64,000 nucleotides of DNA, from IMG/VR virus record IMGVR_UViG_3300038829_000114, one strand, 5' to 3'. This document shows, piece after piece, positions 18,472 to 51,521 of this stretch. Source of the stretch: a virus (lineage: Duplodnaviria; Heunggongvirae; Uroviricota; Caudoviricetes). Under the pieces are notes generated by a model. The model was not told the DNA's origin and did no database searches. It was given only the letters and a program-made list of their open reading frames with translations. The translations under genes and the position numbers were made by a program. How positions within the stretch are numbered: the first letter of the stretch is position 1; each line of letters opens with the position of its first letter.

Positions 18472-18481
18472 GATCGTCTCT

Positions 18482-18936: not shown

Positions 18937-19089
18937 ATGACCGATTTGCGTACTAGAATTATTTATGAAATTTCTTGGGGAATGACTGTTGCGGAAATAG
19001 AAGAAAATAACAGTTTTATTGAGAGAGAAACAAAAAAAGTGTTTATGTCTCTAATGGAAATACTATCTATTGTAAAGGAGTCTCTATGA
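18937..19089 (+). CDS. hypothetical small protein
   Basis: Start context TAAAGGAGTCTCTATGAC, which is duplicated at 19073. Confidence 0.45.
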   Translation: MTDLRTRIIYEISWGMTVAEIEENNSFIERETKKVFMSLMEILSIVKESL

Positions 19090-38771: not shown

Positions 38772-39701
38772 ATGTGGGACAACATTCGTAGAATTAATTC
38801 GTCTGATAAAAATGTAGCAAAGTTTGTTTTTGAGATGGGTACTGCTGTGGCGGAATCAGTGCTATACAAATACCCTACCTATGAAGATCGAACGGTTATT
38901 TGTTGCTCAACAATGAGTGGTTGTCCAATTGGTTGTCGCTTTTGTGGTGCAGGTGATAACTTTGTTCGATCATTAAATGCCGATGAGATTATATCGCAGC
39001 CAGTATACTTGCTAGATCAAACAGGTGTTGACCCAAACGCTATGACGCGGCTACAGATTATGTTTATGTCTATGGGTGAACCTATGCTTAATCTAAAGCA
39101 CCTTATCCCGGCGCTGGAGACACTGTATGCCAAATATCCAAAGGCAGCATTGCTTGTATCCACATCTGGTCCTGATATTGATTACAGCGATTTTAATGAG
39201 GTATCTAAAGCCATCCCAACAATCGGTCTACAATTCTCTGTGCATGAATCTACAGATGAAGCTAGAGATAAGTTGATCCCGTTTAGTAAGAAGCTGTCTT
39301 TGACACAAATTTCTACTGTAGGCAAGGATTGGTATAAAGCTACTGGCCGTCAACCGTTCTTTAACTATTGCGTACATGAAAACAACAATACATATGCAGA
39401 TGTAAACCGATTGTCTCATTTGTTTGACCCGTCTGTTTGGCAAGCTACAATATCTGTGATTTGTGAGCGTAACGAATCCATTGCTGCCGCGAACGAACGC
39501 CAGCGGGGGCTTGCCTCTGACTTTATGAGTAAGATGTTAAATAATAACTACTCTGTTCGTATGTTTGATCCTGCTGGACAAGATGATATTGGCGGCGGCT
39601 GCGGGCAGCTTTGGTTTGTGCAAGACTGGATGAAGAAAAATCCACACTTGGCCAAGCCATCTGTCGGTTATGGATTGCCGATGGTACATACCCCGGCGTA
39701 A
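38772..39701 (+). CDS. RlmN/Cfr-family radical-SAM RNA methyltransferase-like protein
   Basis: CX3CX2C (CPIGCRFC). Also MSMGEPMLN, STSG, S(V)HESTDEARDKLIP and the C-terminal GGGCGQL conserved-Cys motif, colinear with RlmN. Confidence 0.7.
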   Translation: MWDNIRRINSSDKNVAKFVFEMGTAVAESVLYKYPTYEDRTVICCSTMSGCPIGCRFCGAGDNFVRSLNADEIISQPVYLLDQTGVDPNAMTRLQIMFMSMGEPMLNLKHLIPALETLYAKYPKAALLVSTSGPDIDYSDFNEVSKAIPTIGLQFSVHESTDEARDKLIPFSKKLSLTQISTVGKDWYKATGRQPFFNYCVHENNNTYADVNRLSHLFDPSVWQATISVICERNESIAAANERQRGLASDFMSKMLNNNYSVRMFDPAGQDDIGGGCGQLWFVQDWMKKNPHLAKPSVGYGLPMVHTPA

Positions 39702-39747
39702 ATGTTATCAAAAAGTAAATAACTATACTAATTAGTGAGGATTTAAT

Positions 39748-40020
39748 ATGAGTAAAAAAGGAAAACCAAAGGAGCTAAAATTTCTGTTAGCTGTGACAGA
39801 AAAACTCAATAATAAAAACGATCTTGGTAATTTAATAGAATCTGGTTCATCAGATTTTGAATTGGGAGAACCTGGTCAATCTCCAGAGGATGTGGCAGAA
39901 AGACTTGCTGGTAACGAGCCGGAATCTATCTTTGTATATGAGATTTCAATTAAAAGAGTGGAGAGCTTCGGCGTTGAAAGTGAGCCTGTTCTAATTCCGT
40001 GTGGAGTTGATTATGAGTAA
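39748..40020 (+). CDS. hypothetical acidic protein
   Basis: RBS GTGAGGA. Confidence 0.5.
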   Translation: MSKKGKPKELKFLLAVTEKLNNKNDLGNLIESGSSDFELGEPGQSPEDVAERLAGNEPESIFVYEISIKRVESFGVESEPVLIPCGVDYE

Positions 40021-40258
40021 GAAAAAACTGAAAGCCAATCTACAATATTATGCTTTTACAGTGGTTGATGATGAGCTAGATAATAATATTTTTTCAGTAT
40101 TGTCTGAGGAAGACGGTTGGTGGGGAGAGACTGAAGAAGATGCCGTAAAAGAGTTGTTAGATAATCAAGAGGTAGAGAAAGATACTAAGATTGAAGTCTA
40201 TAAACTTGGTGCAGAGTTGGTAGGTAAATTTAAGTTTAGATTAACTAAAACGGAGTAG
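40013..40258 (+). CDS. hypothetical acidic protein
   Basis: RBS GGAG before ATG 40013. Confidence 0.5.
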   Translation: MSKKKLKANLQYYAFTVVDDELDNNIFSVLSEEDGWWGETEEDAVKELLDNQEVEKDTKIEVYKLGAELVGKFKFRLTKTE

Positions 40259-40262
40259 TTTT

Positions 40263-40517
40263 ATGGAAAAAGTTATTGGAACGTGTTCAGAATGTCATGG
40301 TAGGGTTTGTATTAGTTTTCCTTGGCATTCTGTGTTACCACAAATCCCACGTTGTATTGATTGTGGGGCTACTATGGCGAAACCACATGGGCCGGTGATA
40401 CCAATGGTACCACGAGAAGACCATTATAAGGATGAGACCCCACATCCGGGATGGTCAAAAGAGCTAAGCCCGTGGGAGTGGCCGGAAATAACGTTTTTTC
40501 AGAAAACGTGGTGTTAG
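40263..40517 (+). CDS. zinc-ribbon protein
   Basis: CSECHGRVC…CIDCG. Confidence 0.5.
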   Translation: MEKVIGTCSECHGRVCISFPWHSVLPQIPRCIDCGATMAKPHGPVIPMVPREDHYKDETPHPGWSKELSPWEWPEITFFQKTWC

Positions 40518-40521
40518 CCAC

Positions 40522-40550
40522 TTGACAAAGTAATAAAAGTTTGCTAATAT
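40522..40550 (+). promoter_or_regulatory. sigma70-like promoter TTGACA-17-TAATAT; duplicate of the promoter at 2384
   Basis: Core CTTGACAAAGTAATA is identical to 2383-2397. Confidence 0.55.
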
Positions 40551-40555
40551 AGTCT

Positions 40556-40813
40556 TATATGATATTTTGATCCGATGGACGTTTAAGTTAATAGCTACTC
40601 TGTGTACAAAGGGTAGCTAGTCTTGGCAATGAGATAGACATTAACATTGCCCGCAGGTTAAAGGTTAGGTTTTGAATCCTTTCTCCTGCGTGACCAAAAA
40701 ACCACCATTCCACTTAAAATTGAAGAAACAATCCTTTTGTGGGATACCTTTGTCTAGGGTTCGACAAAATTTAAATTATGTGATATTATTAAGAGCAATA
40801 ATAGGAGAACAAT
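40556..40813 (+). promoter_or_regulatory. long (~260 nt) structured 5' leader or ncRNA preceding the DUF1399 gene
   Basis: Three consecutive 6-7-bp stem-loops (tagctac/gtagcta; ggcaatg/cattgcc; cgcagg/cctgcg), an A-tract, and no ORF. Confidence 0.35.
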
Positions 40814-41449
40814 ATGATTTGGATTATTAGCGGCGCTATTCTTATTTTTGGAGTTGTGATTTGGGCAATGGCTGTATCGACAGAGCCTGAAAAAGTAACG
40901 GACTATGATTTGGTTAAGAGAATTAATAGGATTGACTTTAAGCCTATTGAAAAACTGCTTGAGAAGAAGAAAAATTGGGATCGAGCTAAAATTGACATCA
41001 ACATCGTTGAGTATAAAAAATTCTTGTTTTTGGTTGGTGCGAACTTAGGGCACACAATCGTACCGTTTAATGATGACGTAGATGAAGTTTGGCATATGCA
41101 CTTGCTAGACTCCGCAAAATACCGCCTGGATTGTATTAATGTCTTTGGACGCATTATTGACCACAATCCTCACTTATATGTTGGGATACCTAAACAGGTT
41201 GATGGACATAAAAAAACACAGCAGCTTTATAAAAACATGTCTCCTTCAGTTAGGGCTACATTAGACTCCCGCCATTATAACAGCAGGAGAAATACCACTG
41301 ACGACTACAGTACAACCTATATTCCAAGTAGCTGTAGTTCTGACAGTCCTAGCAAGGCAGCGTCATGTGGTGCCTCTTGTAACAGCGGCGCTTCTTGTGG
41401 TGGAGCATCTTGCGGAGGTGGGGGTTGCGGCGGCGGTTGCGGTGCATAA
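40814..41449 (+). CDS. DUF1399 (glycine-rich-domain protein)-like membrane-anchored protein with a Cys/Gly/Ser-rich C-terminal tail
   Basis: VPFNDDVDEVWHMHLLDSAKYRLDC…IDHNP resembles the DUF1399 core (DIDLIWHTHQL…Y..DC). Tail SCGASCNSGASCGGASCGGGGCGGGCGA. Confidence 0.55.
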   Translation: MIWIISGAILIFGVVIWAMAVSTEPEKVTDYDLVKRINRIDFKPIEKLLEKKKNWDRAKIDINIVEYKKFLFLVGANLGHTIVPFNDDVDEVWHMHLLDSAKYRLDCINVFGRIIDHNPHLYVGIPKQVDGHKKTQQLYKNMSPSVRATLDSRHYNSRRNTTDDYSTTYIPSSCSSDSPSKAASCGASCNSGASCGGASCGGGGCGGGCGA

Positions 41450-41838
41450 TGAAATACGATAAATATATAGGCCATCCTGTAGACGTTTATTTTAATCTAC
41501 ATAAACGGGTATGGAGTGTGCGGTCTCGAAAAACCAATAAGATTATTTTACACACACCACAAGCCGCAGTCAAAGATGTAAAGTTTGTTGTCAGGGAATC
41601 TGGGCGCAAACGTGTTTTAAAAGAAAAAAGAAAAAACGTACACGCTTTTGTTCGTGGAATTTTAGCTGATTTTCACAATAACACTGACGGGAGTGTTACC
41701 CACTTTACGAGGGTTCATTATAACCCTTTCCGAGCAGGGTATTTTTTTACCGAAATAACAAACCCAGTACATAACGCTAGCTTGGTTGTTATGGGCAAAT
41801 TTGAAGACGCAGATTGTTGGGCAACCGGACTTACATAA
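41449..41838 (+). CDS. hypothetical protein
   Basis: TAATG overlap start. Confidence 0.5.
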   Translation: MKYDKYIGHPVDVYFNLHKRVWSVRSRKTNKIILHTPQAAVKDVKFVVRESGRKRVLKEKRKNVHAFVRGILADFHNNTDGSVTHFTRVHYNPFRAGYFFTEITNPVHNASLVVMGKFEDADCWATGLT

Positions 41839-41849
41839 GGAGAATTTTT

Positions 41850-42056
41850 ATGTTACACGAAGTAAAACCCGGATCATTTGTATTACCTTTTGAAATATGT
41901 GCTGTTTTTAAAAGTGGTGATAAGGTATTAAACTGGACATATACAAAAAATGGGGTAACTCACAGCGATTATTTTGAAACGGAAACAGAGCGCGACAATG
42001 CGCTGGATGTTTTAGTTAAAGCAGTAAACGACTCACAACCTATGAAAATTGAGTAG
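41850..42056 (+). CDS. hypothetical protein
   Basis: RBS TAAGGAGAA. Confidence 0.5.
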   Translation: MLHEVKPGSFVLPFEICAVFKSGDKVLNWTYTKNGVTHSDYFETETERDNALDVLVKAVNDSQPMKIE

Positions 42057-42116
42057 GTTGCACAAAAAATAAACTTGTGTTACTATACATAAAGTAACAA
42101 AACAAAGGAGTTACAT

Positions 42117-42446
42117 ATGTTGAATAAGATTTATCATTTGCGTCGTAAGGATGAGAACGGAATTAGCAACCAAGGCGGTGTCACGATTGTCGCAAAGCTG
42201 TTGCCTAACCACCGTACAGTATTTGCCTCGTTTGCTGTTTGCAATGGCAACGATAATTTCTCCCGTAAGATTGGGCGAAGTATTGCTGAAGGCCGCTTAA
42301 AGAACGGTATTGGCTTTAAGGTTTCACATCGCCGTGACCAAAAACTTATCGAAGATATTTTGTTTGCTAAGAACTTTAAACTAGTTGGTATCAGCCGCGC
42401 TCAGGAAGAAACTCTTAGCGAAGCATTGTTCGCTGCTGGGTTATGA
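42117..42446 (+). CDS. hypothetical protein
   Basis: RBS AAAGGAG. Confidence 0.55.
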   Translation: MLNKIYHLRRKDENGISNQGGVTIVAKLLPNHRTVFASFAVCNGNDNFSRKIGRSIAEGRLKNGIGFKVSHRRDQKLIEDILFAKNFKLVGISRAQEETLSEALFAAGL

Positions 42447-42448
42447 TA

Positions 42449-42478
42449 TTGACAACAATAGTTATTATCTGATATAAT
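42449..42478 (+). promoter_or_regulatory. sigma70-like promoter TTGACA-18-TATAAT for the tRNA-Arg pair
   Basis: -35 at 42449-54 and -10 at 42473-78; the first tRNA begins 9 nt later. Confidence 0.55.
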
Positions 42479-42486
42479 AATTGTAG

Positions 42487-42555
42487 GCCCATGGTAATAG
42501 GATACAGGCGAATCTTCTAAATTTGCCGTTGGACGTTCGAGTCGTCTCGTGGGCA
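42487..42555 (+). tRNA. tRNA-Arg (anticodon TCT), compact with a short D-arm
   Basis: Acceptor GCCCATG/CGTGGGC (one G·U pair), anticodon stem CGAAT/ATTTG, loop CTTCTAA, T-arm GGACG-TTCGAGT-CGTCT. Confidence 0.6.
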
Positions 42556-42559
42556 ACAT

Positions 42560-42630
42560 GGCCTAGCTATCTGGATGTAGGCGCGAATTTCCTAAATTTG
42601 CTGCGGTAGGTTCAAATCCTATCTAGGCCG
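42560..42630 (+). tRNA. tRNA-Arg (anticodon CCT)
   Basis: Acceptor GGCCTAG/CTAGGCC (perfect), anticodon stem CGAAT/ATTTG, loop TTCCTAA, T-arm GTAGG-TTCAAAT-CCTAT. Confidence 0.65.
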
Positions 42631-42648
42631 AATTAAAGTAGGTAAAAA

Positions 42649-42984
42649 ATGGTAGACATCGTAGAACCAAAATTACTCTGGGAACTCCTAGTCCCAACAA
42701 TACATAGTGAGACGGGTAAACCAATCCGTACTCGTTTCCACAGAGTATGGGACACCAAAGTTCGTGCCATATCTGGCGGATTAACAATCTTACAGCCTGC
42801 TAAGGGTCAGTGGATTTCCATGGAAGGTGAGTTGTTTAGTGAACGAATGATACCTGTCCGCATTATGTGTACTTGGAGTGAGATTAATAAAATATCTGAC
42901 ATGACAGCAGCCTACTACAAACAAAAAGCTGTTATGTTTTATAAACTTACTCAAGATGTACACATTAAACATTACACAAGCTGA
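42649..42984 (+). CDS. hypothetical protein
   Basis: ORF. Confidence 0.55.
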   Translation: MVDIVEPKLLWELLVPTIHSETGKPIRTRFHRVWDTKVRAISGGLTILQPAKGQWISMEGELFSERMIPVRIMCTWSEINKISDMTAAYYKQKAVMFYKLTQDVHIKHYTS

Positions 42985-42992
42985 GGTGGTAT

Positions 42993-43256
42993 ATGGACTG
43001 GGATTATTACAAAATTGGTGGTGAAAAGTGTTCAGAGAAAGACCCTAACCTGCAAAGAGCCGAGGGTTACATTGGTAACTTTAAATTAGAGCTTGATAGA
43101 ACAAACAACACTAAATTTGTTGGTTACATTAATGGTTGCCCTGAAATTTCTGGCGACACTTTAGATATTGCAAAAAAACATCTTGTTGCACAAGCTATAG
43201 TTCTATCGCTAGTTACACTAGACGCGCTTAAAGAATACTACTTGACAATACAATAA
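42993..43256 (+). CDS. hypothetical protein
   Basis: RBS GAGGTGG. Confidence 0.5.
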   Translation: MDWDYYKIGGEKCSEKDPNLQRAEGYIGNFKLELDRTNNTKFVGYINGCPEISGDTLDIAKKHLVAQAIVLSLVTLDALKEYYLTIQ

Positions 43257-43270
43257 AAACCTGCTATACT
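43242..43270 (+). promoter_or_regulatory. sigma70-like promoter TTGACA-17-(TG)TATACT
   Basis: -35 at 43242-47 and an extended -10 at 43262-70. Confidence 0.5.
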
Positions 43271-43276
43271 CTGTAA

Positions 43277-43745
43277 CTGACAATTTGGTGTTTGGTTGAA
43301 CAAGGGGTCGCCAGCCCCTAAAACATGTAACCATCGGCTGAAAAGCATGATGGAGACAGTAGCAAAAACCAACGAAGCATAAAGCTAAAAAAACAACGGT
43401 TGTACAACCGTTAGTTTCGTAAGAACCGGGCAAATCGACTAATACTTGATGGCTGTATCCGGTTGGAGGGAACCGTACCTCCCCTTCGCACAGAGTGGGC
43501 GTGATTAACCTGCTTGAAGGTGGCTGAATAATGCGCTGTGGTAGGAAGCTTGAGGGTAATCAATAGTCCCTTAACACCCGGTTGTCGTTTAATAGTTTTA
43601 GCGAACCTTACTAGGGTGTAGCGTGGAGACAGGACTAGTGACCTGAAAGAGTAACCACAACTAAAACTATTTGGGCGGAAACTAAGCCCTGGAGACACTC
43701 ACGCTTTATGCCACTCTGTCGTGTCTCTAGGGCTTTTTGTTTTTT
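43277..43745 (+). ncRNA. candidate ~470-nt structured noncoding RNA (alternatively a replication-origin-like region), bounded by a promoter and a strong terminator
   Basis: 530-bp gap with no ORF. Hairpins ggggtcgccagcccc and aacaacggttgtacaaccgtt. Ends in the stem GCCCTGGAGACAC…GTGTCTCTAGGGC + TTTTTGTTTTTT. Confidence 0.4.
43686..43745 (+). terminator. rho-independent terminator (13-bp stem built from the GGAGACAC/GTGTCTC motif + T-run)
   Basis: Perfect inverted repeat followed by TTTTTGTTTTTT. Confidence 0.7.
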
Positions 43746-43790
43746 GACGTAAAAATAATTTCTGGTATAATGTAATAACTGGAGATTCAA

Positions 43791-44177
43791 ATGACAAAAA
43801 AACATCCTCTACAACCGCTTGAACTTGATAAGAACGGTGTGCTTCGATTTAAACAAAACAAAATTGTAAATACGCTTCTCGAATGCGCCAGCGCGGGTAA
43901 GAAGCTAGACCTTAACGACATTGCTATGATAGATTTTTCACAGGAAGATAGGGCGCAGTTCGCTCAGTTAATCGGCTATTCCCTGTCTGGTTATGGTGAT
44001 CTATCTTATGTGGATAATGAGACTTACGATGCCGCTGATAAAACATACAGAGAAGGTTTAACAGAGTCCGAAGCTCGTATTAAAGACCTTGAAGAAAAAC
44101 TTGCTTCAGTCAGGGAGCAGGTCAGAGACTTGGCTCCAACATTGTTTAGAATATCCCCAGACGATTTGGAGGAATAA
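43791..44177 (+). CDS. hypothetical protein
   Basis: RBS CTGGAGA. Confidence 0.55.
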   Translation: MTKKHPLQPLELDKNGVLRFKQNKIVNTLLECASAGKKLDLNDIAMIDFSQEDRAQFAQLIGYSLSGYGDLSYVDNETYDAADKTYREGLTESEARIKDLEEKLASVREQVRDLAPTLFRISPDDLEE

Positions 44178-44473
44178 TGAATACTGCATATATGTATACC
44201 TGGACTGAATACGAACGTGGTTGGGGACAGCGGCCTGATGGAGCATCTCTCCATGTTTCTGAAGATGTTGCAAAAAAATATATAAAGGATTATTGGGACA
44301 GACAGCCCAAGAAAGTTCCTGATGACTATTCAAAAGAAGACCAGTCAACTCCTATGAAAGTCAAAGTATCTGACCAACTTTTTGAACAGATTAGTAAAAC
44401 AGGTTCTCTTATGCTATGGCAAGGCGAGTTTAACAAGTTGAGAACAGCAGAAGAGATTTTAAAGGTTCTATAA
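44177..44473 (+). CDS. hypothetical protein
   Basis: ATGA overlap. Confidence 0.5.
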   Translation: MNTAYMYTWTEYERGWGQRPDGASLHVSEDVAKKYIKDYWDRQPKKVPDDYSKEDQSTPMKVKVSDQLFEQISKTGSLMLWQGEFNKLRTAEEILKVL

Positions 44474-44474
44474 T

Positions 44475-44732
44475 ATGAGATGTATTTTAATGGTTGCTTT
44501 ACTTTTAACGTCAAGCTCATGCAGTCCCAGGATTAGTAGCTACCCTGACGAGTTTGGTTTAGCTAACGGCGAGTGTTTTGTGTTAGAGACTCCTATAGAA
44601 ACAGTAAAATGTCAGAATATTGGCTGGTTTACAGGTGCCGACGCAATCCTATCTTTTCCAGTTCTTATGGAGTGTGACAATAACAAAAGATATTTTAATC
44701 CCGTAAACTTTACAATAGAGACATGTAATTAA
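44475..44732 (+). CDS. secreted or lipoprotein-like small protein
   Basis: MRCILMVALLLTSSSCS signal peptide. Confidence 0.5.
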   Translation: MRCILMVALLLTSSSCSPRISSYPDEFGLANGECFVLETPIETVKCQNIGWFTGADAILSFPVLMECDNNKRYFNPVNFTIETCN

Positions 44733-44733
44733 G

Positions 44734-44997
44734 ATGGACGAGCCAAACGACGACATGCCAAAATCTATGTTTTGGAGACCTAACCAGCACGATCCTATAG
44801 AGATTAAATTTATACCCGCAGACAACGCTATAACTTTTAGTCACCATACAGACCATGGTATTAAAAAAGGATGTTGTATTTGCGGCAAGGTTTACTGTGA
44901 TCATTTACAAAACAAACATTTAGAGAAAATTAGCTCCGATTGGATAAACAATTTTTTCTCGGCAATAGAAGGCAAAAAAGGTAGTGTAAAATGGTAG
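44734..44997 (+). CDS. hypothetical protein
   Basis: ORF. Confidence 0.5.
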   Translation: MDEPNDDMPKSMFWRPNQHDPIEIKFIPADNAITFSHHTDHGIKKGCCICGKVYCDHLQNKHLEKISSDWINNFFSAIEGKKGSVKW

Positions 44998-45230
44998 TAG
45001 AAATTTGGGAAGGTGAGTATTTAAATCCAGAGCATGTTAGTGCTATAAACTCGTCTACTTACGAACGTGGTGAGAAAAAAGATTGGTCTTATAGCATTAG
45101 TATTAAACTACAAAGTTCTAAAGAAATTAGCTACTCCTGGAAAACCAAACAAGATAGAGACCATATGCGACAAAAAATTGTTGATTTATGTAATATGTTG
45201 AGTTTGCCGAAAACTGATTTGCAATCTTAG
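44991..45230 (+). CDS. hypothetical protein
   Basis: ORF. Confidence 0.45.
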   Translation: MVVEIWEGEYLNPEHVSAINSSTYERGEKKDWSYSISIKLQSSKEISYSWKTKQDRDHMRQKIVDLCNMLSLPKTDLQS

Positions 45231-45252
45231 CATGTTAGTGGTAATATAATGT

Positions 45253-46332
45253 ATGGAAACTGCATTACAAAAAGCACTGCGCTCTGGGGAAACTCCAGAA
45301 CAACTAAAAGAACGACTTGGGGTCGGATTCTATGTTCATCCCTCTTTGCCTTTAGTTGGATTTAAATATTCACAGATTGATAGTCCAAAGGCAGACCCAG
45401 TGGTTTTAGCCTCTCGTGGTACTGTGCTCGAAAAAGATACTTGGAATTTAGTTGCACAACCTTTTTTCAGATTCTTCAATTATGGTGAGCAGGAGACTGA
45501 TAAAAAGTTTGTTTTTCCAGGCTCATCTGCGTTTGCGAAAGAAGACGGCTCTTTAATGATCGTCTATAATTATAATGAAAACTGGCATGTTAATACGTCT
45601 GGTTCTTTCGGTATTCAAGAATGTGGGTTCTCAGGTAAAACTTGGGGCCAGTTATTCTGGGAGACCTCAAAACTGGATAAATCTAAACTAGACCCAAAGA
45701 ATACCTATATCTTTGAACTATGCACTGTTTGGAACAAGATCGTCCGTATGTACCCAGAACCTAAAACTCCTTTAACCGGGGTCATAGAGACGGCTACGTT
45801 ACATGACTATCCAAATCCTTGGGTAAAAGCTGTTGGGGAAGAGTTAGGTGTTGGGTATCCAGCACTAGTATATTTTTCCTCAATACAAGAGGTCCACGAC
45901 TGCTTAACCCAAACTTCAGCTAAAGACCCTACTTTTGAAGGTTTGGTATTGCGGGATATGAATGGGCTTCGAGTTAAGATCAAGACGGATACTTATTTAG
46001 CTCTACACCACATGGCAGATAATGGTAATTTAGGTAATCCTAAATATATTGTTAAGTATCTCCTAAAAGGTGAGAAGGATGAGATTATTACATACTTTCC
46101 TGAGCTAAAAGCTAAGATAGAGGATGTAGAAGCCACTTTAAACACTCATAAACAGGCTTTATTAGCGCTTTGGGAAGAAACTAAGGGTATCGTGGCCCAG
46201 AAGGACTTTGCCCTTGCTATTGTTGGAAATACGCCTTTTACGGGCATTCTGTTTAATGCACGTAAGACAGGTGCCGATCCTGCTAAGATTTGGCACGAGT
46301 CAGATGAATTGATTGTTAAAGTTTTGTACTAA
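45253..46332 (+). CDS. RNA ligase 1 (T4 RnlA-like) family nucleotidyltransferase
   Basis: Motif I FAKEDGSL (KxDG, identical to the T4 Rnl1 TKEDGSL), motif IV EGLVLR, motif V RVKIKT. Confidence 0.65.
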   Translation: METALQKALRSGETPEQLKERLGVGFYVHPSLPLVGFKYSQIDSPKADPVVLASRGTVLEKDTWNLVAQPFFRFFNYGEQETDKKFVFPGSSAFAKEDGSLMIVYNYNENWHVNTSGSFGIQECGFSGKTWGQLFWETSKLDKSKLDPKNTYIFELCTVWNKIVRMYPEPKTPLTGVIETATLHDYPNPWVKAVGEELGVGYPALVYFSSIQEVHDCLTQTSAKDPTFEGLVLRDMNGLRVKIKTDTYLALHHMADNGNLGNPKYIVKYLLKGEKDEIITYFPELKAKIEDVEATLNTHKQALLALWEETKGIVAQKDFALAIVGNTPFTGILFNARKTGADPAKIWHESDELIVKVLY

Positions 46333-46616
46333 TGGGGATCAAGCTAAAATCTAAGGCTGAAAGAGCTATTAGGATACTACTGGCAGGTCACCCTATAGTA
46401 CATGATGGTCGGGAGTATTACCTTGGAGATGATAATAACCTCGTACACAAAGCAGTGAAATTCAGCTTAGGTAGTAAAAAAGGCCCTGAAACTGTCTATC
46501 TAAACGTTCATGTAGACTTGAAATGGTTCTTAGATATGGTGGAGTCTCTATCTGAGGATTATTACATAGGCGCGATGGCTAACGTCACGCTAACTGAGAT
46601 GAATAGGGGCGGTTGA
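46332..46616 (+). CDS. hypothetical protein
   Basis: ORF. Confidence 0.5.
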   Translation: MGIKLKSKAERAIRILLAGHPIVHDGREYYLGDDNNLVHKAVKFSLGSKKGPETVYLNVHVDLKWFLDMVESLSEDYYIGAMANVTLTEMNRGG

Positions 46617-46660
46617 CATATTGTAGTCTCTATGTTACTATATGGAAATAGGAGATTTAT

Positions 46661-46912
46661 ATGCGAAAAGAATATGTCACATTTGAAGGTAAGGTTACAA
46701 CCAGTGCGAGGGCTTATGCAAAATCATGGAAAACCGCTACCGAGAAAATAGCAAAGCTGTTTGGCGAGGATGTTGTTTGTATGGGCTTCGATCCATCCAT
46801 TGCTTTAGCTGTTAAGTATAAAGACGCTCTGGGGTATGATTGTCTCGCAGCATCTGTTACAATCCCAAAACTAATGTCGAAAAAATTATTAGAAAACTGT
46901 TCTAAAAAGTAG
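46661..46912 (+). CDS. hypothetical protein
   Basis: RBS TAGGAGA. Confidence 0.5.
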   Translation: MRKEYVTFEGKVTTSARAYAKSWKTATEKIAKLFGEDVVCMGFDPSIALAVKYKDALGYDCLAASVTIPKLMSKKLLENCSKK

Positions 46913-46919
46913 GTATATC

Positions 46920-47123
46920 ATGACACTCCCAAAAGTATATGTTTTTATCGGGGCTGACGGATACGTGCTGTCGGTCAGTAGTGACAAACCCGTTGAGGTT
47001 ATTCAAGTTGACTACTCGCCAATGGCTACTCTTGACAAGCATGCTACACTAAAGCTTGAACAAGAAATGCGAAAAAATACAGTGTTTACAAAATCGTTTT
47101 ACGGAGATACTAAAAATGTCTGA
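46920..47123 (+). CDS. hypothetical protein
   Basis: ORF. Confidence 0.45.
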   Translation: MTLPKVYVFIGADGYVLSVSSDKPVEVIQVDYSPMATLDKHATLKLEQEMRKNTVFTKSFYGDTKNV

Positions 47124-48159
47124 ATGGAAAGTTAGCGTTGAAGCTATTGAAATATTTGACCACCCCAATGCAGACCGCATGCAAATTGGGAAAGTTGGTA
47201 CTTATCAGGTAGTTGTGCAGAAAAACTTGTACAAGACTGGGGATATTGTTGCGTTTGCGCCGGAAAAGTCTATTCTTCCACAATCTTTGAAAGAGCCTTG
47301 GGAAAAATACCTTACCGGCACTAACAAAGATCGGGTCAAGGGAGTGCGCTTACGTGGGGAATTTTCGTGTGGTATTATCATCCCGTTGACTACTGTCCAA
47401 GAAAAACTTGGCTATGTTCCTGAAGTCGGCGTAGACATTTCAGAAAAACTCTCAATCCGTAAATTTGAGCCACCTGTCCCTGTCGCTTTAATGGGCAGCG
47501 TTCAGAAGTTTCCAGAGTTTATCAACAACACTTTGGCCGGTGCTCATGACTGTGAACACTTTAGAACATATGTAAACGAGTTTGTTGCCGGTGAACGTGT
47601 AATAGTACAAGAAAAATTGCATGGTAGCCAGTTAATTTGTACTGCCGATGCCGGGGGTAATAACCCAACAATAACGTCTAAAGGTTTGCGTAAAGACGAT
47701 CTTTGTATTAAAGAGAGCGAAGCCAACTCTTACTGGCAAGCTTTCCATAACTGCAAACTACAAGATGTGCTGTTCGAGGCGGCTTTAACACACTCCCCGA
47801 CTAAAGTTATACGAGTGTTTGGTGAATTGGTGCCTTGCCAAAAGGGTTATGCCTATGGCTTGACAAAACCTGAAGTTCGTATTTTTGACATCCGGGTTGA
47901 TGGGCAATCTATTCCGTATGACCAAGCTCCGCCAAGCGCAAAGAAAATCTGGGTTCCATTGCTCTATGACGGGCCTTTTGAAGAAGTTAAGATACTGCCT
48001 CTTTGTGAGGGTAACGAGCAGGTCTCTGGCAAAGAATACCATATCCGTGAGGGCTGTGTTGTTTCTCCATATATAGACAGGTATGCTAAGGACCGAACAC
48101 GCCTGCGTTTGAAGGTTATTAATCCTAAGTACAAGGATGAAGACGATGCGTTCAACTAA
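47116..48159 (+). CDS. Rnl2-family (KxHG) RNA ligase-like nucleotidyltransferase with an N-terminal extra domain
   Basis: Motif I QEKLHGSQ (T4 Rnl2 has EKIHGTN), motif IV REGCVV, motif V LKVINPKYK. ATG 47116 overlaps the previous stop. Confidence 0.6.
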   Translation: MSEWKVSVEAIEIFDHPNADRMQIGKVGTYQVVVQKNLYKTGDIVAFAPEKSILPQSLKEPWEKYLTGTNKDRVKGVRLRGEFSCGIIIPLTTVQEKLGYVPEVGVDISEKLSIRKFEPPVPVALMGSVQKFPEFINNTLAGAHDCEHFRTYVNEFVAGERVIVQEKLHGSQLICTADAGGNNPTITSKGLRKDDLCIKESEANSYWQAFHNCKLQDVLFEAALTHSPTKVIRVFGELVPCQKGYAYGLTKPEVRIFDIRVDGQSIPYDQAPPSAKKIWVPLLYDGPFEEVKILPLCEGNEQVSGKEYHIREGCVVSPYIDRYAKDRTRLRLKVINPKYKDEDDAFN

Positions 48160-48160
48160 G

Positions 48161-48346
48161 ATGACTGAATCCGAATTGAGGTTGCTACGGGAGAAAGCAT
48201 CTCTTGAAAAGGCTTGTCTCTTTTTGGACCTAAAGACTCTACAGTTGTATGGTTTGATGACAGAAGAGGATTTACTGACGCAGATAGCTTTGCTAAAAGA
48301 CGAAAGTGTAAAACAACTCTTAATTGACAATGGCGCTATGGTGTGA
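48161..48346 (+). CDS. hypothetical protein
   Basis: ORF. Confidence 0.4.
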   Translation: MTESELRLLREKASLEKACLFLDLKTLQLYGLMTEEDLLTQIALLKDESVKQLLIDNGAMV

Positions 48347-48352
48347 TAGTAT

Positions 48353-48652
48353 ATGAGCATGGAAAACAAACTTAAAGCAATAATGAAGTTCTGTGCGCCG
48401 TTCATGGCTATGAACGCCTACGAAGACTTAAAAGAAGGTGTTACTGGCAAAAAAACAGGATTCCTAGAATCCCTGTTTGTCGGGATGGGCACTTACTATG
48501 CTTTAAACGAGAGCGAAAAACAGCCTCAGCCGGTTAGCCAAACTGCCGACGAGCCTGAAACACCTCATGTTGACGTTCCCTACGTTCCTAGCCGTCCTGT
48601 TGCTGTCTCTAGCAACCCTGCCGGGAAACACATTAAAGATTTTCTAAAGTAA
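48353..48652 (+). CDS. hypothetical protein
   Basis: ORF. Confidence 0.5.
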   Translation: MSMENKLKAIMKFCAPFMAMNAYEDLKEGVTGKKTGFLESLFVGMGTYYALNESEKQPQPVSQTADEPETPHVDVPYVPSRPVAVSSNPAGKHIKDFLK

Positions 48653-48737
48653 TACCTCTTTCCGAGGTATCAAACAAATCTTGTTGTTTGGGGATAAGGT
48701 CTCTGTTACTATAAAAGTATACAAGGAGATTTGTATG

Positions 48738-48920
48738 GAACAGAAAATATTCGAAGTTGAGGTTGTGGTTAAAGGCTCGTTTAAGATACGAGCAGTTTCA
48801 GAAGCGGATTTCAACGCAAAAACGACTGCTGCACTGTTGTTATTAAATTTAAACACGTTGGGCGCAGATTTTGAAGTTGAGTCTGAAGAAGGTACTGCCG
48901 AGTTATTCTTGAAAGAGTAG
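48738..48920 (+). CDS. hypothetical 60-aa protein
   Basis: Strong RBS CAAGGAGATTTGTATG. Confidence 0.45.
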   Translation, partial: EQKIFEVEVVVKGSFKIRAVSEADFNAKTTAALLLLNLNTLGADFEVESEEGTAELFLKE

Positions 48921-48925
48921 TTAGT

Positions 48926-48954
48926 TTGACAGTACCCTACAAATGATGTAGAAT
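48926..48954 (+). promoter_or_regulatory. sigma70-like promoter TTGACA-17-TAGAAT for the radical-SAM operon
   Basis: -35 at 48926-31 and -10 at 48949-54. Confidence 0.5.
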
Positions 48955-48995
48955 AGTAAAAGTGTTTATTTGTTTAAAACAAAAGGAATATCAAA

Positions 48996-49250
48996 ATGTT
49001 AGATGAGACTGCTCTCCAAGATTTGTTTAAGAAGGCTATTAAGATCGGGCGTATCAGTATTGACGTGTCTCCGTCTGGGGAAGATATTATGTACAGTGCA
49101 AATGCCACCTGGCTCACTCCTGGGATGGGCGGTATCTCTGCCAACGTAAAAGCCAGTGGTGCCAGCACAGTATTATCGGAGTGCTTAACAAGCCTAATAA
49201 CAGACTATGAAACTAAAAAAGCCCTTTTAGTTAAGGCAGTAACGGAGTAG
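48996..49250 (+). CDS. 84-aa protein encoded immediately upstream of the radical-SAM enzyme (candidate substrate or partner; Gly/Ser-rich middle region, no Cys)
   Basis: RBS AAAAGGAATATCAAAATG; first gene after the promoter. Confidence 0.5.
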   Translation: MLDETALQDLFKKAIKIGRISIDVSPSGEDIMYSANATWLTPGMGGISANVKASGASTVLSECLTSLITDYETKKALLVKAVTE

Positions 49251-49254
49251 TTTT

Positions 49255-50898
49255 ATGCCTAGCGAATCAAGAACTCTACAAACAAAGATTAACGGAGTAC
49301 AGATTTACAAGTCTTCGTTCAATCCAAAAACTGGAATGATCGTCAGAGAAACTGTTGAAGGTCTTGATGACTTTGACATGACTCTTACACGATATGTTGG
49401 CTGGAAAAGCGGGGAGTTAGCCCCAACATTTGAACGTGGTGAGTATTTTTGGAATTACGATAAAGACAGAGAGTTTGGAACCAAGGCTTTTCAAGGTTTT
49501 TCGAGATCGAGAACAGAGAAAGCGTTTTCTGTGGTGCCTGAGACTGTAGATATTAAGATCACAGAATGGTGCGATTTTGGTTGTTCTTACTGCTACATGG
49601 ATAGTACAACTACAGCCAAAAAGACAGACGCTATCACACTTGTAAAAAATATTGTGAAAGGCTTCGACCATGCCCCGTATCAATTTGCGTTCGGTGGGGG
49701 CGAACCTTGTTCGTACAAAGACCTCCCAAAGCTTTTGAAAGTAACACGGGAGCTTGGGGTTGTACCTAATTTTACAACCGCTGGTCATATTTTTCGAGAA
49801 GATGTGATTAAAGCTGCAAACAAATATTGTGGCGGCGTTGCTTTAACATACCACCGTTTTAAGGGAGTTGACTTTTTCAAGGAAACGTATGCTAAATGGC
49901 GTGGCGCTCTTAATATCCAAATGAATATTCATGTTATCGCTGATGATGATGTTATTAAGTCGCTGTCTGAGTTAGAGACTATTCAGGCCGAGCTTGGTGG
50001 TACATTTAATATTGTTTTGTTGGCTTACTATCCAAACGTTGGTCGTGCTGATTATAGCCGCGTTATGGATAAGAAAGTTTTTAACGATACCTTACCATCT
50101 GTTATTCGCAAGATGCAACGCAGGCCAGCGGATTTTAGAATTGCTTTTTCTGAGGGCTTACTACCTTATTTCAACTCTCGTGATATTGTGGACATGCAAA
50201 TGGCTACGACACAAGAGGGCAGATTTTCTTGTTATATTGACAACTATGGTCGTATGAGTACCAGTAGCTTTTCAAAGCCTGATATTAAGACACCGACTGT
50301 TTTTGATAAGAGAGCACAAGAGCTTTGGAATAGCCTACAGATGCCGTGGCAGAAACAATCTATCTGTTACGGTTGTCCAAAGTCTTCTAAGTGTAACGCT
50401 CCTGATCTAACACACATGTTGTACTGTGCGTACTCTCCTCTAAACAAAGGTGGAGACCACATTAACGATTACAATCCTTATAATGTTTCAGATCGGCGCA
50501 ACCCAAACAGATTTAACACACAGATTACCGCTATTGGTAGTTTTGTAACGAACTCGTCTTCGGTTATTTGTGCGTTTCCAAAAGAAGTTTTAGACAGCCC
50601 GCAGGTTAGGGCGGTCATTGAAAAATACGGTTTCGATTTGGACCACGTTGGAGATGTTTGGTATCGTGGGTCTTGTGGGTCAATTGCTTCATCTGCGGCT
50701 AAAAAAAGACTCTTAAAAAGTGAGTTGAGTTCGGAAGAATATGGGGAACGTGTTGCTGGCCAAATTGACGTGGACGATGGTAATGTCTATGTTGTGTATG
50801 GCGATGAATATACATCGACAGAGACAATTTTCCTCGATCTTTTAAAAGAAGTTTTGGGCGGAGAGTTGAAATATGTTGTCCATGATGATTTTAACTAA
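49255..50898 (+). CDS. radical-SAM enzyme with SPASM/twitch-like C-terminal Cys cluster (547 aa)
   Basis: CX3CX2C at aa 106-113 (CDFGCSYC), then FAFGGGEP. Late cluster CYGCPKSSKCN…YCAY. RBS ACGGAG. Confidence 0.75.
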   Translation: MPSESRTLQTKINGVQIYKSSFNPKTGMIVRETVEGLDDFDMTLTRYVGWKSGELAPTFERGEYFWNYDKDREFGTKAFQGFSRSRTEKAFSVVPETVDIKITEWCDFGCSYCYMDSTTTAKKTDAITLVKNIVKGFDHAPYQFAFGGGEPCSYKDLPKLLKVTRELGVVPNFTTAGHIFREDVIKAANKYCGGVALTYHRFKGVDFFKETYAKWRGALNIQMNIHVIADDDVIKSLSELETIQAELGGTFNIVLLAYYPNVGRADYSRVMDKKVFNDTLPSVIRKMQRRPADFRIAFSEGLLPYFNSRDIVDMQMATTQEGRFSCYIDNYGRMSTSSFSKPDIKTPTVFDKRAQELWNSLQMPWQKQSICYGCPKSSKCNAPDLTHMLYCAYSPLNKGGDHINDYNPYNVSDRRNPNRFNTQITAIGSFVTNSSSVICAFPKEVLDSPQVRAVIEKYGFDLDHVGDVWYRGSCGSIASSAAKKRLLKSELSSEEYGERVAGQIDVDDGNVYVVYGDEYTSTETIFLDLLKEVLGGELKYVVHDDFN

Positions 50899-51521
50899 TG
50901 ATTAGATTTTTGGGCGAACTTCCGAGAGAATGTTATATTGCCGTGTCTGGTGGTCCTGATAGCATGGCTGTGTTAGATTTCTTGGCGCATGATGGAAAAC
51001 GAGATATTACTGTACTACACGTAAATCACGGAACTGCGTTTGGTAACTTAGAGGGTATGCCGGTAACAGGAAGATACTGTGACAGGAACAGAATTAAGTG
51101 GTCGAACACTTTTATTGATACACAGCCGGAGTCTAATAAAGAAAATTACTGGCGGGAAAAGAGATATGAATTTTTTAATAAGTTTACAGATAAGCCACTA
51201 ATTACATGCCACACGCTTGATGATTGTATTGAGACCTGGTTTTTTGGTGCCTGTCATGGAACACCTAAACTAATCCCATATCGTAGAGGACATATTATTA
51301 GACCGTTCTTAGTGACTCCGAAAAACGAGCTTGTTAGGTGGTGCGATGATCATGGCGTCCCATTTGCTGTTGACCCAAGTAACTCAGACCCGGCCTACAT
51401 GCGGTCGTTAATCCGTACAGAAATGGTACCAACAGTTTTAAAAGTAAACCCTGGTATCAGTAAGGTTATAAAGCGCAAAGTGGAAGAAGACTTTGCAGCT
51501 ACAGAAACGTGTGCTGTTTAA
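50898..51521 (+). CDS. tilS: tRNA(Ile)-lysidine synthetase (TilS) catalytic-domain-like PP-loop ATPase
   Basis: PP-loop SGGPDS. Also VLHVNHG, HTLDDCIETWFF, IIRPFLV…DPSN…Y.R..IR, colinear with the TilS N-terminal domain. ATGA overlap with the rSAM gene. Confidence 0.65.
   Translation: MIRFLGELPRECYIAVSGGPDSMAVLDFLAHDGKRDITVLHVNHGTAFGNLEGMPVTGRYCDRNRIKWSNTFIDTQPESNKENYWREKRYEFFNKFTDKPLITCHTLDDCIETWFFGACHGTPKLIPYRRGHIIRPFLVTPKNELVRWCDDHGVPFAVDPSNSDPAYMRSLIRTEMVPTVLKVNPGISKVIKRKVEEDFAATETCAV

Follow-up and report, generated by a model that had tools for sequence, protein, structure and literature searches.

The 64,000-nucleotide stretch of tailed-phage DNA analysed here (the window) carries on its plus strand a conserved structured RNA, the core of which is 308 nt long (43279-43586) and closed by a helix named P1. 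This core is very probably related to manA RNA (RF01745), and would represent a previously unannotated long form of it. Two of its loops remain self-complementary in homologues while their bases change. The complete chain of claims, from a stand-alone RNA gene through kinship with manA to a molecule that associates with itself, is considered reasonably probable.

Homologues and covariation of the RNA core

Pattern scans of phage, metagenome and Bacteroidales contigs retrieved 118 loci with 69 distinct variants, which come from very large phages of gut, rumen, sediment and groundwater and from Bacteroidales chromosomes. Since the homologues were gathered with exact patterns, the sampling is biased, and the invariance of the three most conserved motifs, CGUAAGAA, GCAAAUCG and GAUGGCUGUAUC, which the patterns required, is partly by construction. 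A family profile (nhmmer) matches 43283-43576 with E=8e-64, and the window holds a single copy. Of the 8 kb around the locus, only sequence within the RNA resembles any GenBank phage at the DNA level (74.5% identity to a 735-kb uncultured phage), and no close relative of the window copy was found among the fetched loci, where the best identity was about 75%.

A model of 77 base pairs was evaluated on an alignment of 42 sequences (A2), in which it was 92.5% paired versus 35-48% when the partners were slid, and its covariation score was 0.634 versus 0.10-0.14. The observed values were reached in 0 of 500 shuffles, a count that is not a probability, the aligned sequences being phylogenetically related. 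Compensatory changes were found for 62 of the 77 proposed pairs, and RNAalifold predicted 52 pairs of which 43 were compensatory. Several G-U pairs that are invariant or frequent (A2 columns 119:289, 120:288 and 32:39) are compatible with the plus strand only, and the window copy forms every helix of the family. Folding had been proposed as a check by an earlier, sequence-only reading of this DNA; single-sequence z-scores of -3.08 for the plus strand and -2.66 for the minus strand were not decisive, and it was the covariation among homologues that decided. Among the options listed in that reading, a phage noncoding RNA is strongly supported by this conserved and covarying plus-strand structure between a promoter and a terminator.

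The plus strand is purine-rich at this locus, which leaves frames open on the minus strand. Two mechanical minus-strand ORFs, 43411-43698 (95 aa) and 43218-43433 (71 aa), overlap the stretch, which had been described as ORF-free and as the longest of its kind. Neither description holds: if ORFs of 50 aa or more are counted on both strands, the longest uncovered stretches are 2246-2733 and 638-1062. It is very improbable that a small protein encoded by either of these two ORFs explains the conservation. Many homologues do have long stop-free minus-strand frames (median 75 codons), and a blastp cluster of such ORFs covers 32 loci, but length differences between homologues distribute as 16/15/13 modulo 3, so that no frame is kept, the substitutions in helices are compensatory, the promoter and terminator face the opposite direction, and the open frames result from the purine richness of the plus strand. 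A conserved small ORF was sought across the homologues with a negative result.

The chance that conservation reflects an element acting as DNA, either a replication origin or another cluster of protein-binding palindromes, is vanishingly small. Such an element would be in keeping with the palindromes (GGTTGTACAACC) and A-rich tracts that this noncoding gap contains, and an origin had been entertained on sight of the sequence. The cumulative GC skew, however, shows a steady rise over 20-51 kb that is not broken by an inflection at 43 kb, and reading the sequence by eye revealed neither iterons nor tandem repeats. The same element is found inside tRNA arrays and in bacterial chromosomes. The conservation is of the RNA type, with compensatory pairs and with G-U pairs on the plus strand only, which are meaningless in duplex DNA.

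Promoter, terminator and flanking regions

The conserved plus-strand RNA lies in a 534-nt gap (43257-43790) in a chain of plus strand genes. At its 5′ edge, a sigma-70-type promoter on the plus strand (43242-43270) consists of the -35 element TTGACA (43242-43247), a 17-nt spacer and TATACT (43265-43270), and the TG upstream of TATACT makes it an extended -10, TGcTATACT (43262-43270). The promoter, which the sequence-only reading had described correctly, agrees with the consensus at 11 of 12 positions and ranks among the top three promoter-like sites within 7 kb. Judged from the spacing, transcription is predicted to start at about 43276-43278, 1-3 nt ahead of the first paired base of P1.

An intrinsic terminator is predicted at the 3′ edge on the same strand (43684-43745). 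Its arms AGCCCUGGAGACAC (43684-43697) and GUGUCUCUAGGGCU (43720-43733) form a G+C-rich stem of 14 bp including one G-U, or 15 bp in the MFE fold, which encloses a 22-nt loop and is followed by the tail UUUUUGUUUUUU ending at 43745. A terminator with a T-run had been noticed here before and is present, its stem being 14-15 bp and not 13 bp. It was missed by the terminator scan for the sole reason that the loop exceeds 8 nt. A spurious 'mir-70' alignment in the Rfam search follows the terminator stem. With its ends read from these consensus motifs, the locus is a stand-alone noncoding RNA gene of about 465 nt on the plus strand, extending from its own predicted sigma-70 promoter to its own predicted terminator.

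Between core and terminator, positions 43587-43676 of the plus strand hold a lineage-specific 3′ extension, a long hairpin whose closing stem, centred on AAUAGUUUUAG / CUAAAACUAUU, has 15 bp in the MFE fold (fold z-score -2.9), for which no similarity was detected in any fetched locus and no match in Rfam. Nor did any fetched locus match the region upstream of the RNA.

The succession of promoter, structured domain, terminator and ORF is reminiscent of a transcriptional riboswitch, and manA itself was originally put forward as a candidate riboswitch of 5′ UTRs (Weinberg et al. 2010, PMC2864571). A role as cis-acting riboswitch or attenuator, in which the core would sense a ligand and control terminator read-through into the genes from 43791, could also draw on a GGAGACA repeat at about 43627-43633, which by eye resembles the 5′ arm of the terminator and could compete with it. 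Such a role is nevertheless improbable here: the gene downstream (43791 onward) has its own near-consensus promoter (43744-43771, 11/12), and neither the 95-nt spacer nor the terminator is conserved. For the family as a whole, the cis-regulatory option raised earlier is unlikely, as many homologues lie inside tRNA arrays, between tRNA genes and without a downstream ORF, and the Bacteroidales copies sit between one divergent and one convergent gene.

Architecture of the core

All elements of the stand-alone RNA described below are on the plus strand. The 5′ strand of P1, GACAAUUUGGUGUU (43279-43292), pairs with AACACCCGGUUGUC (43573-43586) over 14 positions with one U-C mismatch, and 11 of 11 counted pairs are compensatory across homologues. 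A Bacteroidetes-type promoter, 'TTTG ... TAATTTG', considered upstream of the homologues was discarded, as it is the P1 5′ strand and pairs with CAAATTA at the 3′ end. P1 is followed by a first junction module (43293-43324) made of UGGUUGAACAA, the P3 hairpin and UAAAAC. Here P3 (43303-43308 with 43314-43319, loop CGCCA) is 97% paired and P2 (43295-43297 with 43322-43324) 98% paired, both with covariation. The P4 hairpin (43332-43352) ends in a GAAA tetraloop that is part of the conserved CUGAAAAG.

The 5′ strands of P5 and P6 (43362-43387) flank the conserved CAUAAAGCUAAA. P5 is a long interrupted helix with its 3′ side at approximately 43531-43549 and P6 pairs 43383-43387 with 43521-43525; both are based on per-sequence duplex predictions and on the covarying A2 columns 94:319, 112:299 and 116-120:288-292. 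P5 supersedes a pairing of the 5′ end with GUUACAG drawn by eye, that segment pairing past the second GAAUAA. Together CAUAAAGCUAAA and GGUGGCUGAAUAAUG (43519-43533) constitute a second copy of the GAAUAA/UAA junction module.

The P7 hairpin (43393-43415) presents loop A, UGUACA (43401-43406), a candidate homotypic kissing loop. The two hairpins quoted in the sequence-only reading both exist and are conserved, covarying helices, ggggtcgccagcccc being P3 (43303-43319) and aacaacggttgtacaaccgtt being P7. The most conserved single-stranded segments follow at 43416-43463, with CGUAAGAA at 43419-43426, GCAAAUCG, and GAUGGCUGUAUC at 43448-43459, and are framed by P8 (43425-43430 with 43458-43463). 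The P9 hairpin, GGAGG...CCUCC (43465-43482), is 99% paired and compensatory at 5 of 5 pairs. P10 (43483-43487 with 43516-43520) encloses P10a (43493-43499 with 43509-43515), the two together spanning 43483-43520. The terminal hairpin P11, GAGGG-UAAUCAAUAGU-CCCUU (43552-43572), adjoins the P1 3′ strand; it is 98.6% paired, and compensatory changes occur in 4 of its 5 pairs. Its loop AUCAA (43559-43563) forms a pseudoknot (PK) with UUGAU (43446-43450), in which the pair types CG29/AU5/GC2/UA1 and UA38/CG2/AU1/GC1 were counted. This covarying pseudoknot replaced a helix 'P8a' (AUCGA with UUGAU), which never varies.

At the locus no Rfam family reached its threshold; for GOLLD, ROOL, other large Rfam RNAs, tmRNA, RNase P and group I/II introns there was no match at gathering score in the window and none at E up to 10 within 43150-43850. 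The previous judgement, which saw neither tmRNA nor RNase P nor a group I/II intron here, agrees with these Rfam results and with the finding of no tmRNA by ARAGORN. A resemblance of the core to the S-domain of RNase P RNA, through GCAAACCG..GAUGGC and a GNRA hairpin, was considered. RNase P was rejected, there being no P4-type sequence and no Rfam RNase P match even at E up to 10.

A probable long form of manA RNA

The Rfam search suggested earlier as a check left the locus below threshold for every family and pointed to manA at sub-threshold level. The score of the window was 12.2 bits, over 43494-43580 only, but in many homologues RF01745 spans the whole element below threshold, with 37.9 bits (E=2e-8 in a 421-nt search) for the homologue L058, 33 bits for L083 and 16-27 bits for others. 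The manA gathering score of 55.2 bits was not reached by any member, all lying at 12-38 bits, whereas canonical manA controls obtained 56.7-122.2 bits with the same tool. In the cmscan alignment to manA there are insertions of 102 and 96 nt, and the stems of the central three-stem region of manA are deleted. Inversely, a model of 118 positions, R1, built only from P1-P4 and P11 of the long-form family, finds 12 Rfam-type manA loci at the manA coordinates, with E from 1.4e-6 to 8e-3 in 276 kb. These matches in both directions, from RF01745 to the family and from R1 to manA, indicate that the RNA is a long-form relative of manA.

The consensus scaffold retained from manA comprises P1, UG(A/G)CUGAAYAA with the P3 hairpin and UAARG, a GNRA-capped hairpin, and a terminal hairpin by P1. 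The manA order of closing helix, UGaCUGAAUAA, hairpin and UAAgG with a short enclosing helix is represented in the window (43279-43324) by P1, UGGUUGAACAA, P3, UAAAAC and P2, and aligns to the manA model in L058. The manA terminal hairpin GGGUA..AAUCCC, which the closing helix's 3′ strand follows immediately, has its counterpart in P11 (43552-43586), where the segment GGGUAnnnAnnAAUCCC is common with canonical manA. Both forms are borne by phages, and canonical manA copies also adjoin tRNA or tmRNA genes.

The long form differs from manA in its core of 308 nt compared to about 170-200 nt, thus with some 120 extra nt, and in a distance from UAAGG to the terminal hairpin of approximately 255 nt compared to 95 nt. 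A multi-helix domain of about 200 nt and a second junction appear to be inserted into the manA scaffold; the part absent from manA holds the second GAAUAA/UAA junction, P5-P10, the segments CGUAAGAA / ACAAAUCG / GAUGGCUGUAUC and the two palindromic loops, and the long form is without the extra 5′ hairpin of manA. The sources differ as well: canonical manA is from marine cyanophages and Photobacterium, but the long form is from Bacteroidota phages and chromosomes of gut, rumen and sediment, from a contig of a Saccharibacteria MAG and from the sigma-70-type phage of the window.

Self-complementary loops and proposed self-assembly

In the window copy the centre of loop A, GUAC, is self-complementary, and a self-complementary central GNNC is found in 42 of 42 aligned sequences and, by motif extraction, in 63 of 69 unique variants. 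The adjacent columns 139:140 of this loop are complementary in 100% of the sequences although the bases change (GC25, UA8, GU5, CG3, AU1). Loop B, CGUGAUUAA (43500-43508), has the core UGAUUA (43502-43507), which is self-complementary with one G-U and makes it a candidate second homotypic kissing loop. Different lineages have different palindromes at this one position, the cores in homologues being UAGCUA, UAAUUA, UGAUCA, UCAUGA, GUCAUGAC, CGCG, GCGC, AGCU and GACG. The centre pair of loop B is GC in 20 sequences, AU in 19 and other in 3, the second shell is 83% paired, and complementarity at the outer palindrome position extends to only 71% of sequences. In composition-keeping shuffles the individual loop-B palindromes were not significant; what speaks for them is limited to the mean (5.15 versus 3.29 nt) and the column counts. 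A kissing core of four bases is weak by itself.

Retroviral RNAs dimerise at palindromic kissing loops, of which the HIV-1 DIS and the GACG tetraloops of MoMuLV are examples. As at those sites, the loop core in this family is self-complementary and varies by lineage yet stays palindromic, and some members have a GACG tetraloop at the loop-B position as in MoMuLV. The retroviral RNAs and their biology are unrelated, and unlike them the long form has two such loops per molecule within a large folded domain.

For two loops that stay self-complementary while their sequence changes, pairing between copies is the only explanation offered, and this covariation makes self-association through the palindromic loops rather more probable than its absence. 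The folded monomer would expose the two self-complementary cores, UGUACA in loop A and UGAUUA in loop B, and each loop would pair with the identical loop of another copy, giving two different two-fold contacts per molecule. Such contacts could close an RNA-only homo-oligomer, a ring or cage, like those of manA, ROOL and GOLLD seen by cryo-EM. manA RNAs form 8-, 10- and 60-mer cages via kissing loops (preprint July 2026, bioRxiv 10.64898/2026.07.01.735769); these oligomers were seen by cryo-EM in canonical manA, for which the preprint lists the structures PDB 23NP, 23OO, 24QD and others. That the oligomer is a closed cage and not a dimer or a fibre is put forward tentatively.

An alternative of rather low probability is a structured RNA acting in trans, either as a monomer or together with proteins, for instance as a ribozyme, a protein sponge or scaffold or a tRNA binder, with palindromic loops that serve otherwise or only dimerise. 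The long near-invariant single-stranded segments (CGUAAGAA, ACAAAUCG, GAUGGCUGUAUC and UGAAUAA twice) are typical of active sites and of ligand or protein pockets, the pseudoknot of the P11 loop with CUGAU could merely compact one molecule, and RNA ligases and a PP-loop enzyme are among the neighbours of the RNA in the window. On the other side, the covariation of adjacent loop bases is not satisfiable inside one molecule and the nearest relatives of known structure are RNA-only oligomers. Nor does any protein family co-occur with the RNA across lineages: clustering of neighbour proteins gave no common partner, only lineage-specific synteny. A synteny search with the downstream RNA ligase returned one locus (L119), in which the RNA is absent.

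Genomic context and relation to other phage RNAs

At least 3 tRNA genes lie within 5 kb of the RNA in 25 of 69 variants, and 244 of 267 nearby tRNAs are co-oriented with it. The window has a single tRNA, a tRNA-Arg(UCU) on the plus strand (42487-42555), outside the RNA and 727 nt upstream of it, which has its own 12/12 consensus promoter (42449-42478). No tRNAs adjoin the Bacteroidales chromosomal copies and those of a megaphage-like group, and the tRNA link is therefore not family-wide. Its placement within phage tRNA islands and next to RNA-repair genes allows the guess that the RNA scaffolds or sequesters translation-related cargo during infection; any link to tRNA or translation is doubtful.

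In one locus (L054), GOLLD RNA is located 200 nt upstream of the family member. ROOL and GOLLD, which belong to phage tRNA islands, make RNA-only cages via intermolecular loop contacts (PMC12286853), whereas oligomers of the long-form RNA are only predicted. Like GOLLD (RF02032) and ROOL, it is a large ornate phage or prophage RNA, in part of its variants in or beside tRNA islands, but it is about half their size or less and has no sequence or structure match to them. A distinct class of self-assembling RNA may possibly be represented here, a 'long manA' of about 310 nt with two kissing loops, which would build a polyhedral or ring-shaped RNA-only shell made alongside phage tRNA sets and also in some gut Bacteroidales.

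Implications

ROOL, GOLLD and, as of July 2026, manA form natural RNA-only cages, cellular objects of a new and unexplained sort that all come from phage tRNA islands. The locus adds to them a larger manA relative that is missed by current Rfam models and is widespread, with 69 distinct variants. The manA family appears broader than annotated, and its original cis-regulatory label is ill-suited to the long-form branch. The gene seems clean and stand-alone, in a phage with ordinary sigma-70 promoters, which would make knock-out and expression studies feasible. The sequences themselves indicate the likely intermolecular contacts, namely two loops that are palindromic despite changing bases. If the proposed assembly is true, the long form would join ROOL, GOLLD and manA as the fourth type of natural RNA cage, with interfaces that are readable from sequence covariation and hence reprogrammable.

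A noncoding locus with its own promoter and terminator

The locus opens with a near-consensus sigma-70 promoter on the + strand (TTGACA at 43242-43247, a 17-nt spacer and TGcTATACT to 43270), which matches 11 of 12 consensus positions and is within the top three promoter-like sites of the 7 kb scanned. It closes with a + strand terminator whose stem is built from AGCCCUGGAGACAC (43684-43697) and GUGUCUCUAGGGCU (43720-43733), after which UUUUUGUUUUUU extends to 43745. Both edges had been proposed in the sequence-only reading and were located in the sequence, as were the two perfect hairpins quoted there. Its description of the locus as the longest ORF-free stretch is valid only in part: a 534-nt gap (43257-43790) does interrupt a long run of + strand genes, but mechanical ORFs of 95 aa and 71 aa, both on the minus strand, overlap it, and longer stretches exist elsewhere when ORFs on any strand are counted. 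Further stretches without plausible ORFs, of 425-490 nt, were seen at 638-1062, 2246-2733 and 18472-18962, none with an Rfam match at gathering score; one ORF-poor stretch ends at a tRNA-Met (2714-2789).

The locus is noncoding. Minus-strand stop-free frames are long in many homologues (median 75 codons) because the + strand is purine-rich, and homologue length differences over the putative ORF are spread 16/15/13 over the residues modulo 3, so that no reading frame is maintained. A small ORF conserved across homologues, named earlier as a finding that would speak against an RNA, was looked for and no kept frame was seen; an antisense peptide encoded in these frames is by the same evidence very improbable. 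Cumulative GC skew climbs smoothly from 20 to 51 kb without inflection near 43 kb. The locus is not a replication origin, one of the options first considered, and the probability of a DNA element or origin acting here is close to nil.

A conserved fold on the + strand

The GenBank comparison set comprised 50,697 phage records, and with 8 kb around the locus as query the sole DNA match fell inside the noncoding stretch (43298-43483, 74.5% identity to a 735-kb uncultured phage). Exact-pattern scans with patterns from shared motifs gave 118 loci, including IMG/VR contigs (many of 195-287 kb), 90 metagenome contigs and 8 genome-bin contigs (Bacteroidales, Alistipes, Muribaculaceae and one Saccharibacteria bin). 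These carry 69 distinct core sequences, 48 of them mutually less than 93% identical. Since the patterns demanded GTAAGAA...CAAA...GATGGCTGTATC, the invariance of these motifs is partly by construction; the homologue set is biased by the patterns, and the family is surely wider than the sample. The window holds a single copy (43283-43576; nhmmer, E=8e-64). Two tandem copies, 3-66 and 78-373, were found in one fetched locus (L035), the second truncated at the contig end.

RNAalifold predicted 52 pairs from 45 sequences, 43 of them with compensatory double changes, and the model was extended by covariation scans and per-sequence duplex predictions to 77 pairs in a final alignment of 42 sequences and 358 columns. 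Standard pairs make up 92.5% of this model; sliding the partners by 1-3 columns lowers this to 35-48% and takes the covariation score from 0.634 to 0.10-0.14. Double changes occur in 62 of the 77 pairs. For P4 and P5, which are imperfectly aligned, the counts give too low or too blurred a picture of the support. None of 500 shuffles reached the observed values; shuffle counts are not probabilities, since shuffles ignore relatedness, and the slid-partner control, which preserves relatedness, is equally clear. The strand is fixed by G-U pairs that are invariant or frequent (columns 119:289, U-G in 42/42; 120:288; 32:39) and would be C-A mismatches on the opposite strand, and also by the promoter, terminator and tRNA co-orientation. 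The data thus demonstrate a conserved, intricately folded + strand RNA, in agreement with the earlier option of a phage ncRNA.

In the window copy, with all helices on the + strand, P1 (43279-92 with 43573-86) closes the domain, and promoter spacing predicts a transcription start 1-3 nt 5' of it. The junction segment after P1, consisting of UGGUUGAACAA, P3 (43303-08 with 43314-19) and UAAAAC, is enclosed by P2 (43295-97 with 43322-24), and is followed by the GAAA-capped P4 (43332-39 with 43344-52) and the long interrupted P5 (about 43362-80 with 43531-49). P6 (43383-87 with 43521-25) is flanked on one side by CAUAA and on the other by GAAUAAUG, a second copy of the GAAUAA/UAA junction, which may resemble the UAA/GAN internal-loop motif. 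Inside P6 lie P7 (43393-400 with 43407-15; loop A, UGUACA), CGUAAGAA, P8 (43425-30 with 43458-63) around GCAAAUCG...GAUGGCUGUAUC, P9 (43465-69 with 43478-82) and P10 (43483-87 with 43516-20), which encloses P10a (43493-99 with 43509-15; loop B, CGUGAUUAA). P11 (43552-56 with 43568-72) abuts the P1 3' strand, and its loop (43559-63) forms a covarying five-pair pseudoknot with UUGAU (43446-50); family variants are CUGAU/AGUCAG, AUGAU/AAUCAU, GCGAU/AUUCGC, CAGAU/AAUCUG and UUGAU/AAUCAA. This pairing may occur within one molecule or between molecules, both being compatible with the sequence.

Two features 3' of the core, a 90-nt hairpin (43587-43676) and the terminator, are lineage-specific. In the megaphage-like locus L001 (3330-3590), and likewise in L003, L004 and L006, about 250 nt 3' of the core are also conserved, with CCUUCAGAAAG, CUAUCUUGUAACUGGUAACGGUUACGAAGUCAAGUUACAAAG and GGAUCCGAUAAGAC...GACCUGGAGGAAGACAGGUG as motifs and a terminator at the end; this part may belong to the same transcript, as a 3' domain peculiar to that lineage.

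Relation to manA

No Rfam 15 family reached threshold in the window, which bears out the earlier impression that tmRNA, RNase P and group I/II features are absent, and the only non-trivial match at E up to 10 was manA (RF01745; 12.2 bits). manA was the single recurring family in 20 homologous loci, the match spanning the whole element, with 37.9 bits in L058 (E=2e-8, 421-nt search) and 33 in L083, while a dozen further loci scored 16-27; every one of these manA scores was below the 55.2-bit cut-off. Canonical manA controls fetched from viral contigs gave 56.7-122.2 bits in Rfam. In the cmscan alignment the element shares with manA the closing helix, UGACUGAAUAA, a hairpin, UAAGG, a GNRA hairpin and a terminal hairpin before the closing strand, but two insertions of 102 and 96 nt are required. 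Inversely, a covariance model of 118 positions, built from the P1-P4 and P11 segments of the long-form family alone, recovered these canonical controls at the manA positions (E=1.4e-6 to 8e-3 across 276 kb). With matches in both directions, the family is a long-form relative of manA; by the Rfam criterion it lies outside RF01745. Both ends of the RNA display manA ancestry or convergence.

In 2010, manA entered the literature as a candidate riboswitch, with examples from marine metagenomes, cyanophages and two gamma-proteobacteria (PMC2864571). In a July 2026 cryo-EM preprint, manA RNAs shorter than 200 nt assemble into octamers, decamers and a 60-subunit icosahedral-like cage, built of pentamers that kissing loops between molecules and a GNRA-receptor contact hold together (bioRxiv 10.64898/2026.07.01.735769). 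The other RNA cages known from nature, ROOL and GOLLD, likewise have their genes close to phage tRNA islands, and neither has a known function (PMC12286853).

Palindromic loops and proposed self-association

Loop A is a YGNNCA hexaloop with central GNNC variants GGCC, GUAC, GCGC, GAUC, GGUC and GGCU. Its adjacent middle bases are complementary in 42/42 aligned sequences (GC25, UA8, GU5, CG3, AU1), its outer pair is G-C or G-U in 42/42, and 63 of 69 variants conform to the pattern by motif extraction. Because neighbouring bases within one hairpin loop cannot pair, the only structural reading is antiparallel pairing between the A loops of two separate molecules. The position of loop B in P10a is fixed and its palindrome differs by lineage (UAGCUA, UAAUUA, UGAUCA, UGAUUA in the window, UCAUGA, GUCAUGAC, CGCG, GCGC, AGCU), with a GACG tetraloop in some homologues. 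The pair at its centre reads GC20/AU19/other 3 in the 42 aligned sequences, with complementarity of 83% one shell further out. In composition-keeping shuffles the loops are individually not significant and the mean alone stands out (5.15 versus 3.29 nt), so the evidence for self-complementarity is weaker than for loop A.

We infer that the RNA is made as a stand-alone transcript and that its copies would self-associate via loops A and B, giving the two different two-fold contacts per protomer that a closed ring or cage would require; a dimer or an open polymer would also be possible. A functional RNA acting as a monomer or bound to protein is a less probable reading that still carries some weight; no protein family accompanied the RNA across lineages when neighbour proteins were compared.

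Genomic context

The RNA lies 727 nt downstream of a tRNA-Arg(UCU) (42487-42555, +; found by ARAGORN, absent from the Rfam gathering scan list) whose promoter (42449-42478, +; TTGACA-18-TATAAT) is a perfect 12/12. Both are within a + strand RNA-metabolism island (38772-51521) that includes a radical-SAM-like protein (38772-39701), a T4 Rnl1-family RNA ligase (45253-46332; PF09511), a second RNA ligase with a PHA02142 OB domain (47056-48159), a large candidate radical-SAM-like ORF (49255-50898) and a PP-loop/TilS-like ATPase (50898-51521; PF01171 at 4e-31). The nearest protein relatives are from very large uncultured phages and marine gamma-proteobacterial phages. Nearby, by eye, an intein-like insert seems to split a 1018-aa SNF2-like helicase (51994-55050, -) just past its DEAH-type motif ('LILDEAHY|CFPYDTEV ... 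NGVLVSN|CKNYKT'), and a 211-aa ORF (40814-41449) with a weak GRDP-like Pfam match has an unusual Gly/Cys/Ser-rich C-terminal tail, SCGASCNSGASCGGASCGGGGCGGGCGA.

One group of the family is chromosomal and consists of copies from Alistipes and other Bacteroidales, many identical contigs from the human gut among them. Here the RNA is placed between a divergent gene, by eye mannose-1-phosphate guanylyltransferase-like, and a convergent gene, by eye GH95 fucosidase-like. This arrangement rules out a 5'-UTR role in that group; a cis-acting attenuator in this particular phage is unlikely. No tRNAs were found near the RNA in another group, the megaphage-like Bacteroidota phages (L001-L012).

At least 3 tRNA genes lie within 5 kb in 25 of the 69 variants, in arrays that reach 36 tRNAs plus a tmRNA, and 244 of 267 nearby tRNAs are on the strand of the RNA. 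Suppressor-type tRNAs occur in the very large arrays around the RNA in L043 (the one with 36 tRNAs and tmRNA; anticodon CUA), L011 (CUA) and L025 (UUA), which suggests phages with reassigned stop codons. A DUF3800-V RNA (L055, 228-324; 55 bits, cut-off 37.4) abuts the 3' end of one manA-like RNA. In L054 a GOLLD RNA (310-796; 165 bits), whose linker contains a tRNA, is 200 nt upstream of the manA-like RNA (992-1304) on the same strand, presumably two cage-type RNAs side by side. Canonical manA copies likewise abut tRNA or permuted tmRNA genes. Several viral contigs (L124, 2433-2843; L132, 1-304; L140, 1-591; L121) have canonical manA immediately beside a permuted (two-piece, alpha-type) tmRNA gene, an association of which we know no earlier description. 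As a guess, the RNA may have a role linked to the cargo of tRNAs and translation functions that large phages carry.
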